A stretch of 32,000 bases of DNA from an uncultured Acidobacteriota bacterium (GTDB lineage: Bacteria > Acidobacteriota > Vicinamibacteria > Vicinamibacterales > 2-12-FULL-66-21): the NCBI GenBank assembly GCA_963816725.1, contig CAWFMC010000018.1:431977-463976 (forward strand), written 5' to 3'. The stretch's first letter is position 1. Each line of letters opens with the position of its first letter. The translations under genes and the position numbers were made by a program. Below, one piece after another: positions 6,828 to 24,621 of this stretch. The notes below the pieces were generated by a model, which had not been told where the DNA came from, did not search any database, and saw only the letters and a list, made by a program, of their open reading frames with translations.

Positions 6828-7556
6828 TCAACCCCGCCCCCAAGTCTGAACGCCGGATCCCTGGTGCCCGATCCGTGGTCCCGACTCTGCCGTCTCGGCA
6901 TCAAAGACCTCGGCGAACGCAGCGATGACCGCGGCAGCCACATCAGCCATCGTCGGGGCCTGGCCGAGCAGGCGCTCGATCGAGGTGACGCCCTTGTCGA
7001 TAATCCCGCACGGCACGATGTAGCCGAAATGATCGAGATCAGTGGTGACGTTGAGGGCGAATCCATGGCTCGTCACCCAGCGCGAGATGCGGATGCCGAT
7101 AGCCGCGAGCTTGTCCTCGCCGACCCACACGCCGGTGAGCCCGGGCATGCGGCCGGCGCGGATGCCGAACCGCTCGACCGCCCGGATGAGCACCGCTTCG
7201 AGGTCGCGAACGTAGCGATGAACGTCGCAGCGATCGGGCTTGAGATCCAGGATGGGATAGCCGACCAGCTGGCCAGGGCCGTGATACGTCACGTCTCCGC
7301 CGCGCCCCGTCTCGACCACCTCGATGCCGTGGTCGCGCAGCGTCGACTCGGAAGCGACGACATGAGAGCGGTCGGCGCGCGTCTTCACGCCGAGCGTAAT
7401 GACTGGAGGGTGCTCGAGCAGGAGCAGCTGATCCGGAATGCGGTTGGCCTTGCGTTCCTCGACCAGCGTCTTCTGAAGCGCGATCCCTTCGGCATACGGG
7501 ACCACGCCGAGCTGCCTGACCTCAATCTGTCGAGCCGCGCCTTCGGTCAGAGCCAT
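6828..7556 (-). CDS. lipB: lipoyl(octanoyl) transferase LipB
   Basis: [53 protein letters not shown]. Start set to ATG 7556 (MALTEG), overlapping the E2 stop at 7547 by 10 nt. Confidence 0.9.
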
Positions 7557-8827
7557 GCCTCCTCGAAGTGCTCCAGGCGCTCCTTCATCGAGGTGAGAAA
7601 CCGACCCGCTTCCGCGCCATCGATCAACCGGTGATCGTAGCCGAGCGTCAGGTGGCACACCGGGCGGATCGCGATCGCATCGTCGATCACGACCACGCGC
7701 TTGTCGATGCTGCCGACGCCGAGAATTGCGACCTGGGGCTGGTTGATCAGGGGCAGGCCGTAGAGCGCGCCGAACACACCGGGGTTGGTGATCGTGAACG
7801 TGCCCGCCTGCACCTCCTCGGGACTCAGCCTCTTCGATCGGGCGCGCCCCGAAAGGTCGTTGATCGCGCGGCTCAACCCGAGCAGGTTCTTCTCGTCGGC
7901 GTTGCGGATCACCGGCACGATCAGGCCGTTGTCGAGCGCCACGGCGATGCCGAGGTTGATGTCTTTGCGGTAGACGATGTTGTCGCCGTCAATCGAGGCG
8001 TTGACCATCGGGAACTGGCGCAGCGCATCGACCGTGACCTTGGCGATGAATGCGGTGAAGGTGAGCTTCGCGCCGGCCGCCTCGAACGCCGCCTTCCGTG
8101 ACTCGCGCAGCGCATGGACCCGCCCGAAGTTGACCTCGTAGACGGAGTAGACGTGCGGCGAGGTGTGCGCGCTGAGCACCATGTGCTCGGCGATCTTCTT
8201 GCGCATCACCGTCATCGGCACGATGCTGACGCGCTCCCCCGGTTTGAACGTCACGCTCGGGGCCGGCCTCTTGGCGCTCCTGGCGGCCGCCGGCGTGACG
8301 GCTGCCCCACGTTCGATGTAGTCGAGGATGTCCTGCTTGGTGACCCGCCCGGCGATGCCGGTCCCGTGAATCGACCTGATGTCGATGTGGTGTTCCTGCG
8401 CGATGCGGCGCACCAGGGGCGAGGACTTCTGGCGCCGAAGATCGTCCGCGCTCGGCTCGTCTGCGGAGGACTCGCTTTCGGAGCGATCCATTTCCGGCTC
8501 GCCCGCTACGGCCGCCGGAAGCTCGCTCGGCCCGCTCGCATCAGCCGCGCCGTGGGCGTCAAGGTCCGGGGTGGCGGCCTCTCCGGCGCGCTCGCCGCCG
8601 ATGATCGCGACGACGCTGTTGACGGGGACGGTCTCCCCTTCTTTCGCCGTGATCGACGTCAGCACGCCGGCCGCCGGGGATGGAATCTCGGCGTCGACCT
8701 TGTCGGTCGAGATTTCGAACAGCGGCTCGTCGCGGTCGACCTCGTCGCCGATCTTCTTGATCCAGCGGACGATGGTCCCTTCGGCGATCGACTCGCCCAT
8801 CTGGGGCATGACGACGTTTGTGGGCAT
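7547..8827 (-). CDS. 2-oxo acid dehydrogenase complex E2 (dihydrolipoamide acyltransferase)
   Basis: Lipoyl domain [46 protein letters not shown]3-binding domain [32 protein letters not shown], catalytic [11 protein letters not shown] 8827 chosen; the upstream 170 aa of the ORF-track entry is rejected. Confidence 0.9.
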
Positions 8828-10420: not shown

Positions 10421-10678
10421 TTACGAGTCCTTCTTGCGGATGGACGACAGCGGGACGAAAGTCATCGAGGGAGTCGACGCGGCCACCGGTTCGGGCGCCG
10501 CCGCGGGGGCGTCACCGGGATCGAGACGGGCGACCTGCGATCGCAGGCGGGTATAGTCGTAGCGCAGCTCCCAGTACGACTGGTTCAGCGTTTCGAGCCG
10601 GCGCGCCTGACGCCGGACCAGCAGCAGCGCTATTGCCGCGAGAGCCAGCGCCAGGGCGGTCACGCTCCACAACACCAC
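10421..10678 (-). CDS. small single-pass membrane protein, unknown function
   Basis: GTG start. N-terminal TM helix LWSVTALALALAAIALLLV followed by a charged helix. Ends 4 nt before the lpdA start and carries the lpdA SD (AAGGA) in its 3' end. Confidence 0.5.
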   Translation of the reverse strand: MVLWSVTALALALAAIALLLVRRQARRLETLNQSYWELRYDYTRLRSQVARLDPGDAPAAAPEPVAASTPSMTFVPLSSIRKKDS

Positions 10679-10764: not shown

Positions 10765-12150
10765 ATGTCCGGACTCTCGAAGACGGTCCTGATCTGCGAC
10801 GACGATCAGGGCATGCGCGACACGATCGCGGCGATCCTGCAGCGCGAGTACCGCGTGCTCTCGGTGCCGAGCGGCGAGTCCGCGTTGGCCGTGCTCAAGC
10901 AGGAGGACGTCGACGTCCTGCTGCTCGATGTCCGCCTCCCGGGCATCAACGGGCTCGACGTCCTGCGCATCGTGCGGGAGAACTACGGCTTCGTCGAGTG
11001 CATCGTGATCTCGGCGATCAGCGAGGTCGAGACCGCCGTCCAGGCGATGAAGTACGGCGCCTACCACTACGTCACCAAGACGTTTGAGTACGACGAGCTG
11101 CGATCGCTCGTGCGCAACGCCTGCGAGCACCAGGATCTCAACCGCCAGGTGGCGATGCTGAGCGCCCAGGTGGCCGAGGGAGAGCGCGAGTTCCTGATCG
11201 GTCCGAGCCGGCAGATCCGGGAGATCGTGGACCTGGTGCACAAGGTCGCGAAGCTGTCGGCCACGGTGCTGATTCTGGGCGAGAGCGGTACCGGCAAAGA
11301 GTTGCTGGCGCGACTGCTCCATCGCGAGTCCGGCCGGCGCGACGCGCCGTTCATCGCCGTCAACCTGTCCGCGATCCCGCACGAGCTGGTAGAGAGCACG
11401 CTGTTCGGCCACGAGCGCGGCTCGTTCACCGGTGCGCACAAGCAGCAACTCGGGAAGTTCGAGCTCGCATCGGGCGGCACGCTCTTCCTCGACGAGATCG
11501 GGGACCTCCGCCTGGACCTCCAGGCCAAGCTGTTGCGGGCCATTCAGGAAGGGGAAATCGAGCGGATCGGCGGCACCAAGCCGATTCGGACGAACTTCCG
11601 GCTGGTGGTGGCCACCAACGTCGACGTCGAGAAGGCGGCCAAAGAGGGACGCTTCCGCGAGGATCTCTACTATCGGATCAACGTCATTCCCATTCGGATG
11701 CCGCCGCTCCGCGAACGCCTCGACGACCTGCCGGAACTGGCCCGGCTGTTTCTCGAGCGCTACCGGGTCAAGTTCCGGAAGCCGGTGCTCGGGATCGCGG
11801 ATTCGGCGGTAAAAATCTTGGCCTCGTACTGGTGGCCGGGCAACATCCGGGAGCTCGAGAACCTGATCGAGCGACTGGTCGCGGTCAGCGACAAGGAGTG
11901 GATCACCGACGAGGACCTCCCGATGGAGTATCACCTCGCCAAGCTGGATTCGGGCCCGGCGGCCGGCGAGACGCTGTTCCAGGAGGCCTGCGACACCTTC
12001 GAGCGCAACTTCATTCTCCGCGCGCTCGAGAAGTCCGACTGGAACGTGACCGCGACCGCCCGCTATCTCGGGATTCCGCTCAGCACGCTGAAGCACAAGA
12101 TGGCTCGTCTCGAGCTGCGCGATCTCGCGCGCAGGCTGCGCGGCGTCTGA
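10765..12150 (+). CDS. sigma-54-dependent response regulator (NtrC/Fis family bacterial enhancer-binding protein)
   Basis: Receiver (VLICDDDQGMRD, LLLDVRLPG), AAA+ sigma-54 interaction domain (Walker A GESGTGKE, GSFTGA loop, LFLDEIG), C-terminal HTH (TATARYLGIPLSTLKHKM). ATG 10765; the upstream 536 aa of the 997-aa ORF is antisense to lpdA and rejected. Confidence 0.95.
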   Translation: MSGLSKTVLICDDDQGMRDTIAAILQREYRVLSVPSGESALAVLKQEDVDVLLLDVRLPGINGLDVLRIVRENYGFVECIVISAISEVETAVQAMKYGAYHYVTKTFEYDELRSLVRNACEHQDLNRQVAMLSAQVAEGEREFLIGPSRQIREIVDLVHKVAKLSATVLILGESGTGKELLARLLHRESGRRDAPFIAVNLSAIPHELVESTLFGHERGSFTGAHKQQLGKFELASGGTLFLDEIGDLRLDLQAKLLRAIQEGEIERIGGTKPIRTNFRLVVATNVDVEKAAKEGRFREDLYYRINVIPIRMPPLRERLDDLPELARLFLERYRVKFRKPVLGIADSAVKILASYWWPGNIRELENLIERLVAVSDKEWITDEDLPMEYHLAKLDSGPAAGETLFQEACDTFERNFILRALEKSDWNVTATARYLGIPLSTLKHKMARLELRDLARRLRGV

Positions 12151-12212
12151 CGCCAACCAGCCCGCCATCCGTCCCATTACGGCTCGTCTTCCAGGCTTCC
12201 GGTTGGCGGGGG

Positions 12213-12282
12213 CGGCCAATCACTCGGCCAATCAGCGAACCGGGCGGCTAACCTATTGGCCGGATCGGTGGGCCGATCGGCC
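12213..12282 (+). promoter_or_regulatory. candidate enhancer (UAS) repeats
   Basis: CGGCCAATCA at 12213-12222 and 12225-12234 (direct). Inverted copy TATTGGCCGG at 12254-12263. Perfect 12-bp palindrome GGCCGATCGGCC at 12271-12282. Lies about 135-205 bp upstream of the putative -12 element. Confidence 0.35.
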
Positions 12283-12404
12283 CTCTTGCGCTCGCGTACG
12301 GCCGACGGGCCCGCAGAGCTCTATCCAAAGAGTTCACTGGAATCGGCCACTTATCGCTTATCTCCCGCCGTCGATATGACTCTTTGGTCAGTCCGTAAGA
12401 CCGT

Positions 12405-12420
12405 CGGAATATCGGTTGCA
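12405..12420 (+). promoter_or_regulatory. candidate sigma-54 (-24/-12) promoter
   Basis: cGGaatatcggTTGCA has correct GG-N10-GC spacing (GG 12406-12407, GC 12418-12419) and a perfect -12 TTGCA, but a weak -24 (CGGAAT vs TGGCAC). It lies 76 nt upstream of the rSAM ATG and just downstream of a sigma-54 activator gene. Confidence 0.35.
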
Positions 12421-12495
12421 CTTCGCCGGGCGGTGGGCGGCGCGCTGGTTCGTCCGATGAGCGCTCCGTCGATCGCCAGGCCACGGAGGAGTCCC

Positions 12496-13914
12496 ATGCA
12501 GCCCTCGATGTTCAACGTGAGTGTCCCGCTCGATGGTCGCGACGACGTGTTCCTGATGAACACGTTTTCGGACGCGCAGCTGATTGTGTCGCGTGACGTG
12601 GCCGACGTGCTCGATCGCATCGCCCGCGGTGAACGGCAGTTCGCCGCCGACGAGCGTGACGCCATCGACACCCTCGTCGAGCAGGGGTTCATCGTCGAGA
12701 GTCGGGCCGCGGATCATCAGGCGCTGGAGGAGTTCTTCCACAACGTTCGGGAGGATCGCAGCCAGCTGCGGGTCACGGTCCTGACCACCCTGCAGTGCAA
12801 CTTCGCCTGCGATTACTGCATCCAGGGCGATCACGGCGATTACAACAAGCACGCCGCCAAGATGTCGCTGGACACCGCCGCGCGCACCGCCGAGTGGGCC
12901 GAGCAGCGGCTGGACGCGGTGGCCCCGTCGAGCTTCGCGCTGACGTTCTTCGGCGGCGAGCCGCTCCTCAACCTGCCGGTTCTGTTCTACCTGTCCGAGC
13001 GCCTCGCCGAGAGCTGCCGTGTGCGCGGTGTGCGGATGATGATCAACATCATCACCAACGGGCTGCTGCTGACGCCGGCGATCGTCGATCGGCTGACGCC
13101 CCTGGGCCTGAACGGCGTCAAGGTCACGCTCGACGGCGACCGCGACACGCACAACAGGATGCGGCCGCTGCGCGGGGGCCAAGGCACCTTCGACCGAATC
13201 CTCGACAACGTGCGGCAGGTCGCCGGCAAGACGCGGATCTCGATCGGCGGCAACTTCGACGAGCAGAGCGTCGACAGCTACCCGGCGCTCCTCGACTTCC
13301 TGCGCGAGCAGGAGTTCGCCGGTCAGCTGGCCAAGGTCGCGTTCAAGCCGATCATCAAGCCGGCGCAGTCCGCCCATCCGAAAGGCACGTTCGCACTGAC
13401 CGCGGTCGGCTCGGACGGGAAGCCGCTCGGCGGCGCGTGCATGACGTCGGCCGGGACCGGCGTCTCGAGTGCCTGCGACAACTGCCACTTCCTCGACGAG
13501 AAGATGTCGTATTTGCGCGAGGAAACGATGCGGCGCGGCTTTCCGACGATGGACGGCGTGCACATGGGGCCGTGCGAGATCCACAAGCATCACGCGCACA
13601 CCGTCGGGCCGGACGGTTCGCTCTACGCCTGCCCGGGGTTCGCCGGCGAAGCCACGCAGTCGACCGGCCACATCGACGGCCGCGACGAACAGTGGCGGCG
13701 CGAGTCGGCCAGGCGCTTCGAGGTGATCACGGCGTGGTCCGAGTGCAACGACTGCGCGTTCATTCCGGTCTGCGCCGGCGGCTGCAGTGTCGCGGCGCAC
13801 GCCGAGCTGGGCGACCTGCAGAAGCCCAATTGCCACAAAACGAGTTTCGAGGCTGGCGTGGTGACGCTGGCGAGACAGGCAGCAGCGCGAGCGGAGCCCG
13901 CGCTGGCCGGGTAA
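12496..13914 (+). CDS. radical SAM/SPASM domain peptide-modifying enzyme (RiPP maturase-like)
   Basis: GGAGGA SD 5 nt before ATG 12496. About 95-aa N-terminal extension before the core (RRE/PqqD-like position). CNFACDYC (CxxxCxxC) at aa 101-108. GGEPLL. SPASM motifs GSLYAC (GX4C) and CNDCAFIPVCAGGC (CX2CX5CX3C) plus the trailing Cys in PNCHK. Extra Cys triad CMTSAGTGVSSACDNC. Confidence 0.9.
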   Translation: MQPSMFNVSVPLDGRDDVFLMNTFSDAQLIVSRDVADVLDRIARGERQFAADERDAIDTLVEQGFIVESRAADHQALEEFFHNVREDRSQLRVTVLTTLQCNFACDYCIQGDHGDYNKHAAKMSLDTAARTAEWAEQRLDAVAPSSFALTFFGGEPLLNLPVLFYLSERLAESCRVRGVRMMINIITNGLLLTPAIVDRLTPLGLNGVKVTLDGDRDTHNRMRPLRGGQGTFDRILDNVRQVAGKTRISIGGNFDEQSVDSYPALLDFLREQEFAGQLAKVAFKPIIKPAQSAHPKGTFALTAVGSDGKPLGGACMTSAGTGVSSACDNCHFLDEKMSYLREETMRRGFPTMDGVHMGPCEIHKHHAHTVGPDGSLYACPGFAGEATQSTGHIDGRDEQWRRESARRFEVITAWSECNDCAFIPVCAGGCSVAAHAELGDLQKPNCHKTSFEAGVVTLARQAAARAEPALAG

Positions 13915-13946
13915 GGGGAATGGCTTCGCTAGTTTGGGAGGGTCCG

Positions 13947-14027
13947 GTGGAAGTAGAACGCAACGAGAGCGGCAAGAAAAAGGGGGCGCTGCGCCCCTGG
14001 CTGGTCGACGTCGTCATCGACGAATAG
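13947..14027 (+). CDS. putative divergent precursor-like peptide (26 aa from GTG 13947; 35 aa if ATG 13920)
   Basis: GGGAGGG SD 4 nt before GTG. (M)EVERNESGKKKGALRPWLVDVVIDE aligns with the two 31-aa peptides (M1, G9, K11, K12 and PW.VD identical, with a 3-residue gap where the others have HVC). Confidence 0.45.
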   Translation: MEVERNESGKKKGALRPWLVDVVIDE

Positions 14028-14081
14028 CTGCGCTGAGGGCAGCTCGGGTCACGCTTCACTCACGTCAGTCAGGAGAGAGTC

Positions 14082-14177
14082 ATGAAAATCCAGGTCGTTC
14101 AAAAGGGTACGAAGAAGATCATGTCGAATCACGTGTGCCCTTGGTACGTCGACGAGCCGCCGGCCGCCAAGAAGTAG
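14082..14177 (+). CDS. radical-SAM-associated precursor peptide, copy 1 (31 aa)
   Basis: AGGAG SD 6 nt upstream. MKIQVVQKGTKKIMSNHVCPWYVDEPPAAKK. Not in the ORF track (too short). Paralogue 141 nt downstream. Confidence 0.8.
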   Translation: MKIQVVQKGTKKIMSNHVCPWYVDEPPAAKK

Positions 14178-14222
14178 GCGCCGCCCGCGATCGACGAATT
14201 CACCATTTTCTGAAGAGGCATC

Positions 14223-14318
14223 ATGAAGATCCACGTCGTTCAGAAGGGCACCAAGAAGATCATGTCCAACCACGTGTGCCCTTGGTACGTCGACGAGCCG
14301 CCGGCCGCCAAGAAGTAG
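14223..14318 (+). CDS. radical-SAM-associated precursor peptide, copy 2 (31 aa)
   Basis: AAGAGG SD. MKIHVVQKGTKKIMSNHVCPWYVDEPPAAKK. It has 7 nt differences from copy 1, all at third codon positions: 6 synonymous and 1 Q4H. Flanks are not conserved. Confidence 0.8.
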   Translation: MKIHVVQKGTKKIMSNHVCPWYVDEPPAAKK

Positions 14319-14327
14319 CTGCACGTG

Positions 14328-14357
14328 GCCCGTTGCCGGGAATCCACGGCAACGGGC
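14328..14357 (+). terminator. perfect 11-bp GC-rich hairpin 10 nt after the last peptide gene (terminator/attenuator or mRNA stabiliser)
   Basis: GCCCGTTGCCG-ggaatcca-CGGCAACGGGC. No U-tract follows. Confidence 0.45.
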
Positions 14358-14497
14358 GCAGCACCATCCGCGGTCGTCGACAGGGGTACAGCTCGCCATC
14401 GGTTCTGCCGATACCCCGCTGAGACGCTGGCACCGACGATCAGAGGGCATGGCTTGCCCTCGGCGACTGTGGCAGAGTAGCGCCATAGCGGCGAGAC

Positions 14498-16039
14498 ATG
14501 CTGGTGCGCTCCACACAACGTTCGTCCCTCCTTCCGACCCGGCGCGAGCTGGGCATTTTCGCCTGCCTGCTATGTGCGGTCGTCGCCCTGGCCTGCCGAA
14601 ACAGCGGTCCTGTGAGCGCGGTCAAGGACAGCCTGACGATCGGCATCTCAATACCCAAGGTCGGTGGGGACGAAAACAACATCGACAAAGTGAGCGGGTC
14701 GATGACGTTGGAAACGGCGGTAGCCAACGCACTCGACGGCAAGCCGGCAAAGCGCATATTCGACAGTTGGAAATGGATCGAACACGGCCACGCCCTCGAG
14801 CTGCACCTGCAGCCTCGTGTTTTCTTTCACGACGGTACTCCTCTCAACGCTGAGCTCGCCGCTGACATCCTCAGGGACAGTCTCACCCACCCGGAGCTAA
14901 CGCAGATTTCCGAAGTCGATTCGGTCGCCGCGACCGACGACGAGCATGTCGTGATCAGGACCAAGCGACAGGAGGGACTGCTACTGTCGGACCTGTCGAT
15001 GATCGAATTCGAGCGCCCAGGCAAGCCCGGTGTGGGCACGGGTCCCTTCAAGGCGACAGCCGACCCGGCGACCGTGGAAGCCTTCGATCGGTACTACCTG
15101 GGCGCGCCGACACTCAAGCGGGTCAGGCTCGTCGAATACGATTCTCAGCGGGCCGCCTGGTCGGCCATGATGCGCGGCGAGATTGACATGCTGCATCAAG
15201 TCAGTCGAGACGCCGAGGAGTTCGTCGAAGCCGAGTCGAGTGTCAAGGCCACCAAGTTCCTCAGGCCCTACTACAACGGCATCGTGTTCAACACTCGTCA
15301 TGCCGACCTCTCCAAGCGGGAGGTCCGAGTCGCGCTGAACGAGGCGATCGATCGTGCCGCGATTGTGCGCCTCAGCCTGGGCGGACAGGGGCGGCCGGCC
15401 AGCGGACCCGTATGGCCTCTGCATTGGGCGTATTCGACGTCGGTGTCGGAGTTCGGTTACGACCCGGCTCGCGCTGCGGAGCGGCTGGATGCTCTCGGCT
15501 ACACCGTCGGTCGGGTCAAAGAACCGGGGCGGATGCCGAGCCGGTTTCATTTCAAGTGCCTGCTGGTCGAGAACGATCCGGGTGCCGAGCGAATCGCCCT
15601 GCGCGTGCAGCGACAGCTTTACGAGCTGGGCGTCGACATGGAGGTCGTGCCGGTAAAGAGTCTGAGGAAGGCCTTCAGCACCGGCGACTTCGATGCGGCG
15701 CTGCTGGAATTCATCGGCTCGCGTGCGCTGAACTGGCTCTATATACTCTGGCACTCGCCGCAGCCAGGAGCACGGAGTCAGCTCCCAACCGGGTACGACG
15801 CCGCCGACTCGGCACTCGACCGATTCCGGTCAGCAACCGACGAGACCGATATCCGGGCGTCAGTGGAAGAAATGCAGCGAGTGTTCCGCGACGATCCTCC
15901 GGCTCTGTTCCTGGCCTGGCAGGAACGCTCGCGAGCCCTGAGCAGGGCGTTCGAAGCACCGGACGAGGGCAACGTCGACATCCTCGGAACGATCCGCCAG
16001 TGGCGCGGCGTGCCGATGCCAAAGCAGGGCCGCAAATGA
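14498..16039 (+). CDS. family-5 (peptide/nickel/opine type) substrate-binding protein, no cognate transporter genes nearby
   Basis: SBP_bac_5-like motifs FFHDGTPLNA, GTGPFK, FGYDPARAAERLDALGY. N-terminal signal sequence with a possible lipobox (VVALAC). No permease or ATPase genes adjacent. Confidence 0.85.
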   Translation: MLVRSTQRSSLLPTRRELGIFACLLCAVVALACRNSGPVSAVKDSLTIGISIPKVGGDENNIDKVSGSMTLETAVANALDGKPAKRIFDSWKWIEHGHALELHLQPRVFFHDGTPLNAELAADILRDSLTHPELTQISEVDSVAATDDEHVVIRTKRQEGLLLSDLSMIEFERPGKPGVGTGPFKATADPATVEAFDRYYLGAPTLKRVRLVEYDSQRAAWSAMMRGEIDMLHQVSRDAEEFVEAESSVKATKFLRPYYNGIVFNTRHADLSKREVRVALNEAIDRAAIVRLSLGGQGRPASGPVWPLHWAYSTSVSEFGYDPARAAERLDALGYTVGRVKEPGRMPSRFHFKCLLVENDPGAERIALRVQRQLYELGVDMEVVPVKSLRKAFSTGDFDAALLEFIGSRALNWLYILWHSPQPGARSQLPTGYDAADSALDRFRSATDETDIRASVEEMQRVFRDDPPALFLAWQERSRALSRAFEAPDEGNVDILGTIRQWRGVPMPKQGRK

Positions 16040-17751
16040 GGGGCGTCACCGCCAGGTTCGTGATGCTCATTGCGACGGCAGCCGTCGCGCCGCTGGTCGT
16101 GTATGGCGTCGTCTCGATTCTCCGCCTCGAATCGGGCACCAAACAGTCGGTGACCGAAGGCAACACGCGGGTCGCCAAACAAGCCGCCGAGCAGATCAAG
16201 CAGTACATCGAGAACAACCAGCGCGTCCTCAAGTCCCTCGGCGTCGAGCTCCGCGCTCCGGAGCTGCAGGACTGGCAGCGGTCCGGGATCCTGCGCGACT
16301 ATGTGCTCGATTTTCCGGAGTTCCGCGAGATTGCCTTACTCGACGACAGCGGTGCCGTGGTGGTCACCAGCCGGTTTGGACAATCCAGGGCCACGGTCCC
16401 CCCGGCCGAGAATGTCACGGGCGACCTCTACGTTTCGGCGCTGCGCCTCGATGACGACTTCCTGCCGACCGCCACTATCGGTGTCAGGACCAACAGCCCG
16501 CAGAGCGGCCGGACGTGGATCGTCGGCGAGATCGCGCTCGAAGAGCTGTGGCGCATGGTCGACCGCATTCGCGTCGGGCAATACGGATACGCGCTGCTGT
16601 TGTCCGAGAAGGGCGTGCTGGTCGCGCATGGCAATCCGGACAAGAAGCGGCAGATCGCGGTGGCCGCAAAGACGGCCTCTGGCGACACGCTGGCAGGTCA
16701 GCGGTACGTCAAGAACAACCCCGGATTGCTTTACGTCGATGAGCCCGTCGACGGCCTGAACTGGCGAGTCGGTGTGGAGCAGCCGGAATCCGAAGCCTTC
16801 CGGCTGAATGGCGAGCTGCGCACCCAACTCCTCTACGTCATCGGCGCGGCGCTCCTCGGCACGTTGGTGGTCGGTTACCTCTGGGCCCGCACCTTCATCA
16901 CCCGCATCTTCGCGCTCAAGCGCGCCACCCTGGCCATCGGCGAAGGGCGCTTCGACGAGCGGGTCGCGCTCACCGGAGACGACGAGCTGAAGCAGCTCGG
17001 CGACTCCTTCAACTCGATGGCCGACAGCATCGTCCAGCTGCAGGAGGACGTGCGTAAGCAGGAACGGCAGGCGATGTTCGGCCGGATCGCCGCCGGCCTG
17101 GTCCACGACCTGTCACACCCGATCCAGAACATCGGGAACAGCTGCAAGCTGATTCAGAAGATGTACGACGACCTCGAGTACCGCGCCACCTTCAAGCGCA
17201 CCGTCGAGCGCGAGATGGTCGTCGTCAAACGGGTGCTCGACGACCTGCGCAACATCGCCCGGCCGATTCCGCTCGAACGGTTCCCAATCGAAGTCGATCG
17301 GACGCTGGGCGAAGTCGTCGAATCGATGCAGCAGCATGCCGAAACCGCCGGCCTGACGCTGCGCGGCGAGTTCGCCGCCACCGGCGCCTTCATCGAGGGC
17401 GACCTTTTTGCATTGGGGCGGGTGTACCGGAATCTGATCGTCAACGCGATTCAGGCCACCGCGCCGGGCGGGCTGGTCGCGGTCGCGACCGAGCTGGCCG
17501 GGGCCCGCGTGCACGTCCGTATTTACGACACCGGTTGCGGGATTCCGCCCGACCGTCTGGGCAGGATTTTCGAAGATTTCGTGACCACGAAGCGGCGCGG
17601 CCTGGGGCTGGGGCTGGCGATTTCCAAGAAGATCGTCGAGCAGCTCGGCGGGACGATTTCGGTTGCCAGCGAGGTTGGCAAGGGCACAACCTTCGTCCTG
17701 GAGTTTCCAAGGACGAAAGGCGGCAACGTGGCCCTCGATCAGGCCGGCTGA
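16036..17751 (+). CDS. sensor histidine kinase (TM, periplasmic Cache-like domain, TM, HAMP, HisKA, HATPase)
   Basis: ATG 16036 overlaps the SBP stop (ATGA). TM helices at about aa 8-28 and 264-288. HAMP region (LKRATLAIGEGRFDERV...ELKQLGDSFNSMA), H-box GLVHDLSHPIQN, NLIVNAIQAT, DTGCGIPP, GLGLGLAISKKIV. Confidence 0.9.
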   Translation: MRGVTARFVMLIATAAVAPLVVYGVVSILRLESGTKQSVTEGNTRVAKQAAEQIKQYIENNQRVLKSLGVELRAPELQDWQRSGILRDYVLDFPEFREIALLDDSGAVVVTSRFGQSRATVPPAENVTGDLYVSALRLDDDFLPTATIGVRTNSPQSGRTWIVGEIALEELWRMVDRIRVGQYGYALLLSEKGVLVAHGNPDKKRQIAVAAKTASGDTLAGQRYVKNNPGLLYVDEPVDGLNWRVGVEQPESEAFRLNGELRTQLLYVIGAALLGTLVVGYLWARTFITRIFALKRATLAIGEGRFDERVALTGDDELKQLGDSFNSMADSIVQLQEDVRKQERQAMFGRIAAGLVHDLSHPIQNIGNSCKLIQKMYDDLEYRATFKRTVEREMVVVKRVLDDLRNIARPIPLERFPIEVDRTLGEVVESMQQHAETAGLTLRGEFAATGAFIEGDLFALGRVYRNLIVNAIQATAPGGLVAVATELAGARVHVRIYDTGCGIPPDRLGRIFEDFVTTKRRGLGLGLAISKKIVEQLGGTISVASEVGKGTTFVLEFPRTKGGNVALDQAG

Positions 17752-18173: not shown

Positions 18174-18473
18174 CTACTTCCGCGGCAGTACCGAGTCCTT
18201 CAGCTGCTTCGCGATCCGCGCCTTGACGACCGTCTTCGCCGGAATCTTGATCGCTTCGCCAGTCGCGGGGTTGCGGCCCATCCGGGCCTTCCGCTTCTGA
18301 ACCACCAGCTTGACCATTCCCGGCAAGACGAACTCGCCAGAGCGCTTCAGCTCCTTCTCCGCCAGCGTCGTCATCTCATCGAAGAACTCCCTCGCCTGCG
18401 TCCGCTTGATCTCGAAACGATCGGCGAAGTGCGAGAAGAGTTCTGACTTGCCCATTCTGCGGGCCTCTGCCAT
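18174..18473 (-). CDS. hup: HU family DNA-binding protein
   Basis: KSELFSHFADRF..., beta-arm RKARMGRNPATGEAIKIPAKTVVK. An alternative start at ATG 18455 (MGKSEL) is possible. Confidence 0.9.
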   Translation of the reverse strand: MAEARRMGKSELFSHFADRFEIKRTQAREFFDEMTTLAEKELKRSGEFVLPGMVKLVVQKRKARMGRNPATGEAIKIPAKTVVKARIAKQLKDSVLPRK

Positions 18474-20056: not shown

Positions 20057-21385
20057 TCACGCCTCGCCTCCCTGTGAGCTGGTCTCTTCGAGGAAATAGC
20101 TGCGGCACGCCGCGTCCAGCAGGTCGCGCGAAAGCGCCGGCGGCCGGCCCTGGTAGCGGCACATATCGACGACCTGCTCGACCAAATCGCGCGGGTGGCA
20201 GGCGCGCATCTGGAGCTTGCGTGGCGTGTAGTACTTCCGGTTCAAGTACTCGACCATCACCGGATCGAACGCCAGCCCGCGCTTCCGGCAATTCAGCTCG
20301 AAGATCCGGCAGTACTCGTCGAGGGTCGGGTTCTTCGCCAGGATCTTGTAGGGGATCCGGCGCAGGAACGCTTCGTCGGCCAGCGATTCCGGTTTGAGAT
20401 TGGTGGCGAACACGATCAGCACGTTGAACGGAACCTCGAATTTTCGTCCGGTGTGCAGCGTGAGGAAATCCACCCGGCTCTCGAGGGGCACGATCCACCG
20501 GTTCAGCAAATCCCGCGGCGGCACACGCTGTCGGCCGAAGTCGTCGACCACGAACACCCCGCCGTTGGCCTTGAGCTGGATCGGGGCTTCATAGAACCGC
20601 GCGATCGGGTTGAACGTCAGGTCGAGCATCTCCAGCGTCAGCTCACCGCCGACCACGACCACCGGCCGGCGGATGGACTCCCAGCGGCGATCGTGTGCCG
20701 CGCTGGTGATCACGCTGGAGGACGCCCCGGTGCTGCGGATGTGCGTGTGGTTCACCGGATCGAACATGGTGATCACCTGCCCGTCCACGTCGAGCGCGTG
20801 CGGGATGTGCATCTCCTCACCCAGGGCCCGTCCGATGCCTTCGGCGACCACCGTCTTGCCGTTGCCGGGTGCGCCGTACAGGAACAGCGACTTGCCCGAG
20901 TTCACCGCCGGGCCGAGCCGCTCGAACATCGAGTCGTTGACGATCAGGTCCTTGAATCCGGTCGCCAGGCGCTCGCGATCGACATAGGGCCGCGCCGCCA
21001 TGCAGGCTCGCACGTAGCCGTTGTAGTGCGCCAGCGGCACCGGAGCCGGGCCGACGTAACGCGAGATCTCCAGGAACTGGAAGGCCCGATCGCGGCCCAG
21101 ATCGGTGAGCGCGTAACGGTACCCCGCGCTGCCTACGCCGTTGGCGCCCCGGACTTCGAGCAGCTTCTCGAGCCGGGCATGCTGGATCAGCGCGTCGAGC
21201 AGCGAGTACGGCAGCCGCAGGCTGTCGGCCAGCCCGGACCCGCTCGACTCGCCGGCGACAAGCGTCTTCAGCAGCAGCTGCTTCAGCGTGTCCGGGTGGA
21301 GGCCGCTCTCCTCGATTGTCGCCGGCGGCGCCGGCGGCATCGGCTTCGCGGTGGCGGGGCCGACGTCAAGGGCGGCGGCACTCAT
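20057..21385 (-). CDS. AAA+ ATPase of unknown role, translationally coupled to tadC
   Basis: Walker A LYGAPGNGKT, Walker B-like VFVVDDFG, sensor-1-like VFATN, FLRRI. About 170-aa non-ATPase N-terminal domain. Its ATG overlaps the tadC stop (ATGA, 21382-21385). Confidence 0.85.
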   Translation of the reverse strand: MSAAALDVGPATAKPMPPAPPATIEESGLHPDTLKQLLLKTLVAGESSGSGLADSLRLPYSLLDALIQHARLEKLLEVRGANGVGSAGYRYALTDLGRDRAFQFLEISRYVGPAPVPLAHYNGYVRACMAARPYVDRERLATGFKDLIVNDSMFERLGPAVNSGKSLFLYGAPGNGKTVVAEGIGRALGEEMHIPHALDVDGQVITMFDPVNHTHIRSTGASSSVITSAAHDRRWESIRRPVVVVGGELTLEMLDLTFNPIARFYEAPIQLKANGGVFVVDDFGRQRVPPRDLLNRWIVPLESRVDFLTLHTGRKFEVPFNVLIVFATNLKPESLADEAFLRRIPYKILAKNPTLDEYCRIFELNCRKRGLAFDPVMVEYLNRKYYTPRKLQMRACHPRDLVEQVVDMCRYQGRPPALSRDLLDAACRSYFLEETSSQGGEA

Positions 21386-22302
21386 CGGCGGGTGTTCTCG
21401 ATCATGGGGAACAGCACCGTGACGAACCGGATCGCCGCCGGTCCGATGGTGACGACCCAGATTGCCGGGAAGATGCAGAACACCAGCGGGAAGACCATCT
21501 TGACCCCGGTTTTCGCGGCGGCTTCCTCGGCCCGCTGCCGCCGCTTCGTGCGGAGCGTCTCCGAGTAGACCCGCAGCGACTGCGCGACGCTCGTGCCGAA
21601 CTTGTCGGTCTGGATCAGCATCGTGCAGAGCGAGTTCAGGTCATCGACACCGGTGCGGTCGGCGAGGTTGCGGAGCGCCTCGCCGCGCGGCTTGCCGGCA
21701 CGCAGTTCGAGGTTGACGAGCCGCAGCTCGTCCGACAGATCCGCGTAGGCGAATGAGAGCTCGTCTCCCACGCGCGTCAGCGCCTGATCCAGGCCCAGGC
21801 CGGCCTCGACGCTGACCACCAGCAGATCGAGCGCGTCGGCGAGCGACAGGCGGATGCGGTGCGCACGACGTCGGGCGAGCCGCGCGAGCACCATCCCGGG
21901 GATGATGTAGCCGAAGCCCAAGCCAGCGAGCGCGATCGACACGTTCGGACGCATGAGGATCGAGCTGGAGAACAGGAGGAACAGCCCGAGCGCCAGCAGC
22001 ACCCGGATGCCGAAAAAGATCGTCACCGCTTCAGGGCGCCGGTAGCCCGACTGCACCAGCCGCGTCCGCAGCGACCCGAGCTCCTTGGTATTCCGCGGCG
22101 CCCGTTCTCCAATCCGCTTCACCACCCCGACCATCGCGTCGAACGTCTTGCGCTCGACCGGCTCGGCGCCCTGGGCGGCAGTGGTCAGCTCCTCGAGACG
22201 TCGATCGATCGCTCCGGCGCGCTTCGGCAGCAGCACGAATGCCGCACCCGTGACGATCACCGAGCCGAATAGAAATGCCAGCAGCGGCAGCAGCAACGTC
22301 AC
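21382..22302 (-). CDS. tadC: Flp pilus assembly inner-membrane platform protein TadC (T2SS F family)
   Basis: T2SSF-type topology and position after tadB. GTG start at 22302. Confidence 0.85.
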   Translation of the reverse strand: MTLLLPLLAFLFGSVIVTGAAFVLLPKRAGAIDRRLEELTTAAQGAEPVERKTFDAMVGVVKRIGERAPRNTKELGSLRTRLVQSGYRRPEAVTIFFGIRVLLALGLFLLFSSSILMRPNVSIALAGLGFGYIIPGMVLARLARRRAHRIRLSLADALDLLVVSVEAGLGLDQALTRVGDELSFAYADLSDELRLVNLELRAGKPRGEALRNLADRTGVDDLNSLCTMLIQTDKFGTSVAQSLRVYSETLRTKRRQRAEEAAAKTGVKMVFPLVFCIFPAIWVVTIGPAAIRFVTVLFPMIENTRR

Positions 22303-22303
22303 G

Positions 22304-23280
22304 CTACACCTCGATCTTGACGACCTGGCGAATCCACATGTAGCCGCACGTCTGCATGACGATCGCGCCGAGGAGCAGCATCTGGCCCATGTGCTCGCGG
22401 AACAGAAGGTTCATGTGGTCGGGGTTGATGAACGCCAGCGCCACGCACAGCACCGCCGGGAGCGCCAGCAGGACGTAGCCGGTCATGCGGCCGTGCGCCG
22501 TGTAGACCCGGACTTGCCGCAGGATCTTGAAGCGCTCGCGCACGACGTGGGCGAGGTTTTCGAGGATCTCCGAAAGATTGCCGCCGGTTTCGCGCTGAAT
22601 CAGAACCGCGGTGGCGAAGAAGCGCACGTCGATGATCGGCACCCGCTGCGTGAGGTTGTCGAGCGCGTCCTTCATCGGCAGGCCGAAGTTCTGCTCGTCG
22701 AACGTCTTGCGGAACTCGGGCCCGACCGGCTCGGCCATCTCGTCGGCCACCATCTTCAGGCCGGTGGCGAATGCGTGCCCGGCCTTGAGCGCCCGCGAGA
22801 TGAGGTCGAGCGCTTCCGGAAACTCCTCTTCGAACGCCCGCATGCGCTTCCCGCGCTTGCGACTGAGCAGTAGGAACGGCAGCGCGAATCCGACGGCCGC
22901 GCCGACCGGCAGCCCCCACGACGCACGCACCGCCATGCCGACCCCCATGGCCACGATGATCGCGACCATCACGGCCTTGACGACGACCGCACTGAGCGTG
23001 GTCTGGACGCCCGTCTGCTCGAGCCAGCGGCTCAGGGCAGACCCTGGAGCCGAGCCGCGCAACAGACGATCGAGCGCCGGCAGCGGGCCGGAGGCCTGCG
23101 CCTTCAGGAGGTCCTCATCTATCGCCGCGCCGCGCTGGTCGGGCGTCTGAGAGATTTGCTGCAGCCGCCTGTCGAGCTTCCTGCGCATCAGCATGCCGGG
23201 CACGCGCGTCGCCCCGAGATAGGCGCCCACCACCAACCCGACGCCGATCACGAACGCCACGCTCACCAGCAGCACCGGCA

Positions 23281-23281
<1 letters not shown>
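22304..23281 (-). CDS. tadB: Flp pilus assembly inner-membrane platform protein TadB (T2SS F family)
   Basis: T2SSF-like. Start set to ATG 23281 (MPVLLVS), overlapping the cpaF stop by 1 nt (TGATG). Confidence 0.85.

Positions 23282-24621
<1,340 letters not shown>

Follow-up and report, generated by a model that had tools for sequence, protein, structure and literature searches.

This report concerns a 32,000-nucleotide stretch of contig CAWFMC010000018.1 (positions 431,977 to 463,976), from an uncultured Acidobacteriota bacterium of the order Vicinamibacterales; the whole stretch is called the window below. On its plus strand, positions 12496 to 13914 encode a radical S-adenosylmethionine (rSAM) enzyme with a SPASM domain, and we have little doubt that this is a maturase of peptides made by ribosomes and modified after translation (RiPPs), acting on 31-residue precursors (type B) encoded downstream of it. 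With modest confidence we favor, as the bond that it would make, a thioether between the Cys of the type B peptide and a carboxylate-bearing residue. The RiPP system is real and uncharacterized, and possibly forms a peptide signal circuit; a literature search found no paper on this peptide system.

Relatives of the enzyme were matched in 291 species-level genomes, and the best 80 of the 291 loci were read with 6-kb flanks. A few odd bin labels aside, all 80 are metagenome-assembled genomes of Acidobacteriota or Vicinamibacterales, in which the rSAM enzyme is 64-81% identical to the window protein. Gene order is constant wherever the contig is long enough: genes for 2-oxoacid dehydrogenase E2, E3 and a small membrane protein lie on the minus strand, and are followed on the plus strand by those for a sigma-54 activator, the rSAM enzyme, the peptides, a family-5 solute-binding protein (SBP5) and a sensor kinase. 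One to four copies of the type B gene follow the rSAM gene in essentially all loci whose sequence extends far enough.

An rSAM/SPASM enzyme among RiPP maturases

The enzyme gene and its parts are as follows.

12496..13914, plus strand: rSAM/SPASM RiPP maturase gene, 472 residues (translation, domain scores, homologues)
12496..12780, plus strand: N-terminal domain, residues 1-95, a predicted winged helix resembling a RiPP recognition element (RRE) (AlphaFold2, Foldseek)
12796..12819, plus strand: CX3CX2C radical SAM cluster motif C101/C105/C108, CNFACDYC (Cys map, conservation)
13438..13485, plus strand: extra cysteines C315-x11-C327-x2-C330, CMTSAGTGVSSACDNC (Cys map, conservation)
13573..13833, plus strand: SPASM domain with C360, C379, C417, C420, C426, C430 and C446 (TIGR04085; Cys invariant)

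For the start at 12496 there is support from more than 120 homologue clusters (468-481 residues) that share it. The domain architecture is ordinary. The Radical_SAM model (PF04055) scores 59.1 bits against a gathering cut-off of 29.5 and, with the CX3CX2C motif also present, places the protein in the superfamily; for SPASM, the TIGR04085 model gives 47.6 bits over residues 360-444, its cut-off being 27. The protein stays below the cut-off of all curated NCBIfam families, the scores being these.

Geopeptide maturase, TIGR04280: 254.5 bits, cut-off 400 (best-scoring curated family)
CefB, NF038107: 184 bits, cut-off 600
TIGR04463: 172 bits, cut-off 525
Clo7bot: 141 bits, cut-off 600
FlmE/OhkG: 138 bits, cut-off 500
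PapB, NF047865: 120.7 bits, cut-off 340
QhpD, TIGR03906: 113 bits, cut-off 453 (match over residues 46-447)
SCIFF maturase, TIGR03974: 94 bits, cut-off 425
DynA: 76 bits
YhhB, NF041707: 71 bits, cut-off 445
FxsB, TIGR04269: 57 bits, cut-off 370

CcpM is also among the best-scoring curated relatives. The cyclophane synthases (the last three lines) score lower, and the YhhB and FxsB models do not admit the protein to the cyclophane-forming enzymes. Judged by these scores, the nearest curated families are thioether-forming or Cys-peptide maturases, every one of them RiPP enzymes. Because of this, and because no characterized non-RiPP rSAM subfamily claims the protein in the curated-family scores, we regard it as a peptide-modifying rSAM/SPASM enzyme, which is what the original prediction had proposed from the motifs. 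It appears to work like a ranthipeptide maturase (PapB, QhpD, CteB), yet by score it belongs to none of the curated families. Three of these, TIGR04280, CefB and TIGR04463, are themselves defined only bioinformatically, and no paper on "geopeptide" was found in the literature search.

The clade is a tight one. A search of 1.84 billion representatives returned one full-length relative at 56% identity, the next being at 33-44%, and none of 20 sampled distant relatives scores above any curated cut-off, TIGR04280 included. By sequence profile the closest solved structures are CteB and TigE, the latter an enzyme that makes cyclopropyl residues. Both CteB, the SCIFF maturase (PDB 5WGG, 5WHY), and TigE (8VPO) resemble the window enzyme in having an N-terminal RRE in the fold match; they differ from it in sharing just 15-18% identity and, for SCIFF, in precursors with six Cys. 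Fold matches to the full-length model are CteB, TigE, SuiB, ChlB, SkfB and anSME.

As originally noted, an extension of about 95 residues precedes the core. It had been compared in position with a PqqD-like RRE, and the predicted fold bears this out. AlphaFold2 places strands at 7-11, 17-22 and 27-32, then helices at 33-43, 51-62 and 70-86, which is the RRE topology of a three-stranded sheet followed by three helices ahead of the catalytic domain; the predicted local confidence (pLDDT) is about 85-91, both in the whole-protein model and with residues 1-95 folded alone. The top Foldseek match of the isolated domain is TbiB1 with bound leader (E 6e-3, probability 0.99), other RRE matches are ThcOx, CteB, LynD, McbB and lasso B1, and RREs make up seven of the 12 top matches. 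Models of related RiPP maturases also cover residues 1-95, those of TIGR04280, CefB and TIGR04463 aligning from about residue 8. Weighing against an RRE, none of the fold matches has an E-value as low as 1e-3 and their TM scores are near 0.4, no Pfam match of the enzyme to PqqD (PF05402) was found at E <= 1, and a profile of the domain against PDB sequences gave chance matches only, so the sequence itself does not identify an RRE. With no match at the sequence level, it is at the level of predicted fold that the N-terminal 95 residues are supported as RRE-like.

All 13 motif cysteines are invariant among 56 family members (70-92% identity); the non-motif C174 varies. The radical SAM motif CNFACDYC stands at residues 101-108, as first read. 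The SPASM cysteines are spaced C360-x13-G-x4-C379 (ending in GSLYAC) and C417-x2-C420-x5-C426-x3-C430 (CNDCAFIPVCAGGC), with C446 trailing; all seven of the domain pattern CX9-15GX4C...CX2CX5CX3C...C are present, as had been claimed, although the original list held six and left out C360. An additional Cys triad had also been described between core and SPASM. C315, C327 and C330 are indeed there and invariant, and are kept in the 56%-identical relative, but they are not one unit. In an alignment of 69 distant full-length relatives C327 is kept in 77%, C330 in 26% and C315 in 7%; C315 lies within a clade-specific insertion of about 25 residues, and a C-x2-C at the C327/C330 position is common to several near relatives. 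C327 is probably the ordinary upstream (fourth) ligand of auxiliary cluster I, the usual eighth ligand, a role that we presume from anSME-type SPASM enzymes. C315 and C330 are, from the alignment, clade-enriched additions. The invariance of all three, out to the 56%-identical relative, and the insertion that accompanies C315 would suit an additional, fourth Fe-S cluster bound by them, with a mechanism unlike that of SPASM enzymes with two auxiliary clusters. We think this improbable: C327 aligns with the upstream Cys of 77% of the relatives, and the two clade-enriched Cys then left are too few alone for a cluster. Residues 289-330 have a pLDDT of about 30, and a region that cannot be modelled speaks against the fourth cluster; since the extra Cys cannot then be placed relative to the clusters, it also counts against our own account of the enzyme, in which any role of C315, C327 and C330 would be conjectural.

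Precursor peptides and the proposed cross-link

Downstream of the enzyme gene lie the following.

13947..14027 (26 residues, GTG after GGGAGGG) or from 13920 (35 residues, ATG), plus strand: type A peptide, ...KKKGALRPWLVDVVIDE, no Cys
14082..14177, plus strand: type B precursor 1, MKIQVVQKGTKKIMSNHVCPWYVDEPPAAKK, an open reading frame (ORF) with ribosome binding site AGGAGA upstream
14223..14318, plus strand: type B precursor 2, MKIHVVQKGTKKIMSNHVCPWYVDEPPAAKK, in a 98-nt direct repeat of precursor 1 with 93% identity
14328..14357, plus strand: perfect 11-bp GC-rich stem-loop directly 3' of the last precursor (-34.3 kcal/mol, z = -4.2)

Type B peptides are 31 residues long and follow the pattern M-K-I-[QT]-[VI]-[VI]-K-K, about ten variable residues, C-[PA]-[WFY]-hydrophobic-hydrophobic-[DE] and a short tail. 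In the window the leader reads MKIQVVQK (leader peptide MKIQVVQKGTKK). The two copies have seven base differences, of which six are synonymous, and their identical cores both carry C19, W21, D24 and E25, just as first described. Translated in six frames, the window contains PW-x-V-[DE] at three places only, each of them just 3' of the rSAM gene. For a census of type B, complete ORFs were taken with the MKIxVxKK leader as sole criterion, as picking by the motif would have fixed the Cys and the acid by construction. C-x-[WFY]-x-x-[DE] is present in 91 of the 92 complete ORFs picked in this way, the one exception being a frameshift. The residue at +2 after the Cys is W in 69, F in 17 and Y in 5, so the Trp that the original prediction called invariant is replaceable. 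At +5, Asp and Glu interchange (50 versus 41), and in two peptides this Glu is the very last residue. No Pfam or NCBIfam family was found at E <= 10 for type A, type B or the sister-clade peptides described below.

Type A is, by its sequence, a separate and highly conserved peptide type, not an equivalent paralogue of type B. It had been taken for a third paralogue without Cys; the missing Cys stands, but the peptide is of a distinct type that is found in one subclade only, always first after the rSAM gene, and is missing from the subclade with type B alone. It has a Lys-rich N-terminus without the MKIxVxKK leader, and a nearly invariant LRPWLVDV-x-V-[DE]-H-L-R tail; the window copy ends in ...VVIDE, without the usual C-terminal HLR. 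Entropy by codon position is 0.56, 0.34 and 1.19 bits (58 loci), which shows type A to be clearly coding and under purifying selection.

Sister clades have rSAM relatives of 33-40% identity, in genomes of 32-58% GC, and there the rSAM gene is abutted by a small ORF whose peptide has an MK-x-[IV]-x-KKG leader and, toward the C-terminus, a Cys. Cys peptides with this leader, and dCache kinases, also adjoin the relatives nearest TIGR04280. Eight sister-clade peptides were read.

MKIIKKGSKIVVPRPDCQVVIDWR
MKVTVLKKGNKKSNPSPVWCPVWIR
MKITVIKKGTRKQAPKPVACKPVLY
MKISKGKKVSSPKPAVCVPLAF
MTIKVIKKGNKATETNMTGCLAYFF
MKLVVVKKGSRKENAKPTKCQAFVSW
MKVVKKGRRKTSRVTYCRSKW
MKIKILKKGKMNSNMKCYCCIYAGLPIA

The C-terminal residue stands at exactly Cys+5 in four of the eight (CKPVLY, CPVWIR, CVPLAF and CLAYFF), and one more has Asp there (CQVVIDWR). 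The Cys is kept in these peptides and the aromatic at +2 is lost, with V, P, A or S in its place. As read from the sequences, what recurs in type B and sister peptides is a residue with a carboxylate at position +5 from the Cys.

In the reaction that we favor, the RRE-like N-terminal 95 residues would bind the MKIxVxKK leader of the type B peptides, and the radical SAM cluster at C101, C105 and C108 would make the 5'-deoxyadenosyl radical. Hydrogen would then be abstracted next to the carboxylate of Asp24 (or Glu), and the substrate radical would be captured by the Cys19 thiol, which auxiliary cluster I probably holds. The product would be a thioether-closed ring of six residues, C-P-W-Y-V-D, with a ranthipeptide-type cross-link such as PapB and QhpD make; its membership in the ranthipeptide class, defined by a thioether between Cys sulfur and a non-alpha carbon, has only indirect support, from the conservation of the peptides. 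PapB joins Cys to the carbon that is alpha to the carboxylate in the side chain of Asp or Glu and tolerates exchange of the two (PMC9413430, PMC10739248), and it can also use a C-terminal carboxylate (PMC12373016). The PapB/freyrasin system is like that of the window in its rSAM/SPASM enzyme and in its peptide, where a Cys precedes the interchangeable Asp or Glu to which PapB links it (PMC9413430, PMC10739248, PMC12373016). It is unlike it in that PapA has six CX3D repeats, whereas each 31-residue type B peptide has one CX4[DE], in its genomic context, and in that the window enzyme scores below the PapB cut-off. QhpD likewise forms Cys-Asp/Glu thioethers, yet its substrate is an enzyme subunit and not a 31-residue peptide, and no qhp neighbours are found at the window locus. 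The genes around the window enzyme are likewise unrelated to the SCIFF or QhpC partner that these two families have.

A different bond, which we consider unlikely, would be an aromatic cross-link over X-P-aromatic, running from the sulfur of Cys19 or a carbon of Arg to the ring at +2, or a cyclophane to a downstream residue. Every type B peptide has an aromatic at +2 (W, F or Y) and so does every type A peptide (W), Pro is common at +1, and WprB links Trp-C5 to Arg-C-gamma in W-P-R (PMC11851443), of which type A has the mirror, R-P-W. The likeness of WprB to type A is by motif only, three residues with Pro between Arg and Trp in reversed order (WPR versus RPW), and WprB is a twitch-domain enzyme without auxiliary cluster I that needs a separate partner, WprC (PMC11851443). 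The aromatic cross-link is nonetheless alone among simple models in making type A a substrate, with one enzyme for C-P-W and R-P-W. It is at odds with the scores of DynA, YhhB and FxsB (76, 71 and 57 bits, against 254, 184 and 121 for Cys-peptide maturases), with the sister peptides, in which the Cys persists although position +2 holds V, P, A or S, and with the missing MKIxVxKK leader of type A; and it leaves the invariant acid at +5, and the peptides that end there, unexplained. The original prediction held thioether and Trp cross-link to be equally plausible. We favor the thioether because 91 of 92 type B peptides retain both the Cys and the acid at +5, and because the sister clades drop the aromatic and keep the Cys and a carboxylate at +5.

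Several points count against the thioether. Type A shares P-W-x-V-D with type B and has Arg in place of the Cys, so a thioether cannot explain type A. Three of the eight sister peptides are off the +5 rule (one at +4, one at +6 and one with several Cys), and the peptide of the 56%-identical relative (locus L081, 2727-2819; MKITVLKKAQKAPSREMCPWMICVPPESGK) reads CPWMICVPPE, with Cys and not an acid at +5. What has been demonstrated of the C-terminal reaction of PapB concerns termini with D- and beta-amino acids and not L. The bond is moreover deduced from conservation and from distant homology (PapB 121 bits versus 340).

Some further observations concern the type B genes. Four tandem type B genes with identical cores (CAWMVEQMPEP[KR]K) are found at locus L023 (7603-8100). 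At L031 (about 7600-7700) the gene appears frameshifted and at L046 (about 7440-7480) truncated (MKITLPGF...); in each case an assembly error or decay of the precursor is possible. The stem-loop behind the last precursor was considered as a general feature of the cassette and dropped, as it stands out in 12 of 71 loci, the closest relatives only.

The cassette and its possible role

The remaining elements of the cassette in the window are these.

10765..12150, plus strand: sigma-54-dependent response regulator of NtrC/AtoC type (Pfam Response_reg, Sigma54_activat, AAA_lid_14, HTH_8)
12203..12219, no strand assigned: TTGGCG-N5-GGCCAA palindrome, candidate activator site (upstream activating sequence), with more GGCCAAT/ATTGGCC half-sites to about 12265
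12325..12387, no strand assigned: inverted repeat CCAAAGAGTT...GACTCTTTGG, candidate activator or IHF site just upstream of the promoter
12406..12420, plus strand: sigma-54 type -24/-12 promoter GGAATATCGGTTGCA, with the rSAM start codon 76 nt further on
14498..16039, plus strand: SBP5, of the peptide/nickel/opine type (Pfam SBP_bac_5, 154 bits)
16036..17751, plus strand: sensor histidine kinase with transmembrane segment, periplasmic dCache, transmembrane segment, HAMP and kinase core, AtoS/ZraS-like (domain scans)

The activator begins with the Met at 10765 and combines a receiver, an AAA+ sigma-54 activator domain and a Fis-type helix-turn-helix; it reaches no NCBIfam cut-off, the best being AtoC with 408 bits against 714. 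Its gene immediately precedes the rSAM gene wherever the locus is covered far enough, at 63-90% identity. The promoter pattern GGMAYN5TTGCW has a single match on both strands of the window (GGAATATCGGTTGCA), where 0.36 would be expected by chance. Of 79 loci, 76 have a GG-N10-GC element at a distance of 28-200 nt upstream of the rSAM start, and in divergent loci, whose flanks are otherwise unalignable, it is often nearer to the TGGCAC-N5-TTGC consensus. No sigma-70-like promoter was found in 12100-14600. The spacing of the -24 GG and -12 GC, with an activator gene adjacent, is that of a predicted sigma-54-dependent operon. The TTGGCG-N5-GGCCAA palindrome is also a single match in the window (0.09 expected by chance), and related loci have TTGGCC-N5-GGCCAA-N4-TTGGCC in the corresponding position. 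Both arms of the inverted repeat are kept in most of the closer loci, and the sequence between them is not.

The SBP5 has an N-terminal hydrophobic signal ending in LAC and is, from this, a probable lipoprotein. Its NCBIfam matches are weak (NikA 88 bits, CntA 47 bits; Opp4A also weak). It is found in every locus with enough sequence, at just 29-46% identity, and no ABC permease or ATPase genes accompany it. The kinase start overlaps the SBP5 stop by 4 nt, and kinase identity across the loci is 48-75%. The sister clades again pair the rSAM enzyme with SBP5, dCache kinase and sigma-54 activator, often together with a TonB-dependent receptor. Sigma-54-like elements lie upstream of four sister-clade rSAM genes. 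Receptor genes flank the rSAM gene in five sister loci (L084, L085, L087, L090 and the P0175 contig), often with the sigma-54 activator, an arrangement that suggests the peptide is taken up through the outer membrane.

Among 43 complete loci, divergence of type B follows that of SBP5 when rSAM, kinase and activator are controlled for (partial Mantel r = 0.43, p = 0.001), and kinase, rSAM and activator add nothing further to the correlation. From gene content, promoter and this co-variation only, we tentatively propose a sensing loop, in which the activator would drive the sigma-54 promoter while SBP5 and the dCache kinase would sense the mature peptide in the periplasm, giving feedback. A fuller version, which we hold more doubtful, is a peptide-pheromone or uptake-signalling circuit of diderm bacteria. 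In it the cyclized hexapeptide ring would leave the cell and act through SBP5, the dCache kinase and the sigma-54 activator on the operon, with re-entry by TonB in the sister clades. Out of a fast co-diversification of peptide and SBP5, species-specific pherotypes would arise in Vicinamibacterales and related lineages, under a general rule joining Cys to a carboxylate at +5, whether of a side chain or of the C-terminus. Two things tell against sensing. No exporter or leader protease is encoded in the cassette or the window. SBP5 is the fastest-evolving of the proteins and co-varies with the kinase (r = 0.60), so a clock effect could give the Mantel signal.

The peptide may instead not be a self-signal. 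The two-component system would then sense some other cue, and the peptide would be an output, an antibiotic or a metallophore taken up by TonB receptor and SBP5; to us this has somewhat less to commend it than the circuit, and is likewise doubtful. Methanobactin, which is taken up via MbnT and MbnE, is the model for such a metallophore. The weak likeness of SBP5 is greatest to nickel and opine-metal binders (the NikA and CntA scores above), TonB-dependent receptors flank the rSAM gene in the five sister loci, the core offers thiol, carboxylate and indole, and an exporter typical of pheromone systems is missing. A thioether, however, would take away the thiol as a metal ligand, and SBP5 has no ABC permease or ATPase genes beside it, its stop overlapping the start of the dCache kinase gene instead. 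That SBP5 divergence tracks peptide divergence fits peptide binding, and fits uptake and sensing equally.

A parallel to the sensing loop is found in the streptococcal RaS-RiPPs (streptide and relatives, shp/rgg), where a short rSAM-cyclized peptide is likewise found beside a regulatory circuit (PMC11851443, PMC9389541). Those systems are Gram-positive with a cytoplasmic Rgg, whereas in the window a periplasmic SBP5 goes with a dCache kinase and a sigma-54 activator (and, in the sister clades, with a TonB-dependent receptor).

An ORF of 85 residues (10421-10678, minus strand) between the E3 gene and the activator gene has one hydrophobic segment and is present at 38-83% identity in most related loci; no Pfam family was found for it. 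The kinase gene is directly followed by an oppositely oriented gene for an HU/IHF-like DNA-binding protein (18174-18473, minus strand), and a Bac_DNA_binding gene occupies the same position in the locus of the 56%-identical relative (L081, 6282-6581). IHF often assists sigma-54 promoters; a link between the HU/IHF-like protein and the cassette promoter is speculative. The rest of the window encodes, besides 2-oxoacid dehydrogenase E2/E3 and the HU/IHF-like protein, an Smr-like ORF, a Tad pilus, a Ser/Thr kinase, an extracytoplasmic function (ECF) sigma factor and what we take, from its sequence, to be QueF. The Tad/Flp-type pilus genes (21382-24621, minus strand), which encode a T2SSE ATPase along with two T2SSF proteins, have no relation to the cassette and lie outside the 6-kb flanks read for related loci.

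Novelty and meaning for the Vicinamibacterales

What is new here is a peptide family with a regular carboxylate at +5, its Cys-less companion of type A, and their conserved pairing with SBP5, dCache kinase, sigma-54 activator and sigma-54 promoter. The Vicinamibacterales (Acidobacteria subdivision 6) rank with the most abundant bacteria of soil, and their biology is very poorly known. If the proposed chemistry is true, the type B product would be a minimal ranthipeptide with one six-residue thioether ring, and its substrate rule, Cys plus a carboxylate at +5, would carry chemistry of the PapB type over to the natural residues of C-termini. Should the sensing loop be real, there would be widespread peptide signalling in Gram-negative-type bacteria by way of a solute-binding protein, a dCache kinase and a sigma-54 activator, and the co-evolution of receptor and ligand would be directly testable.

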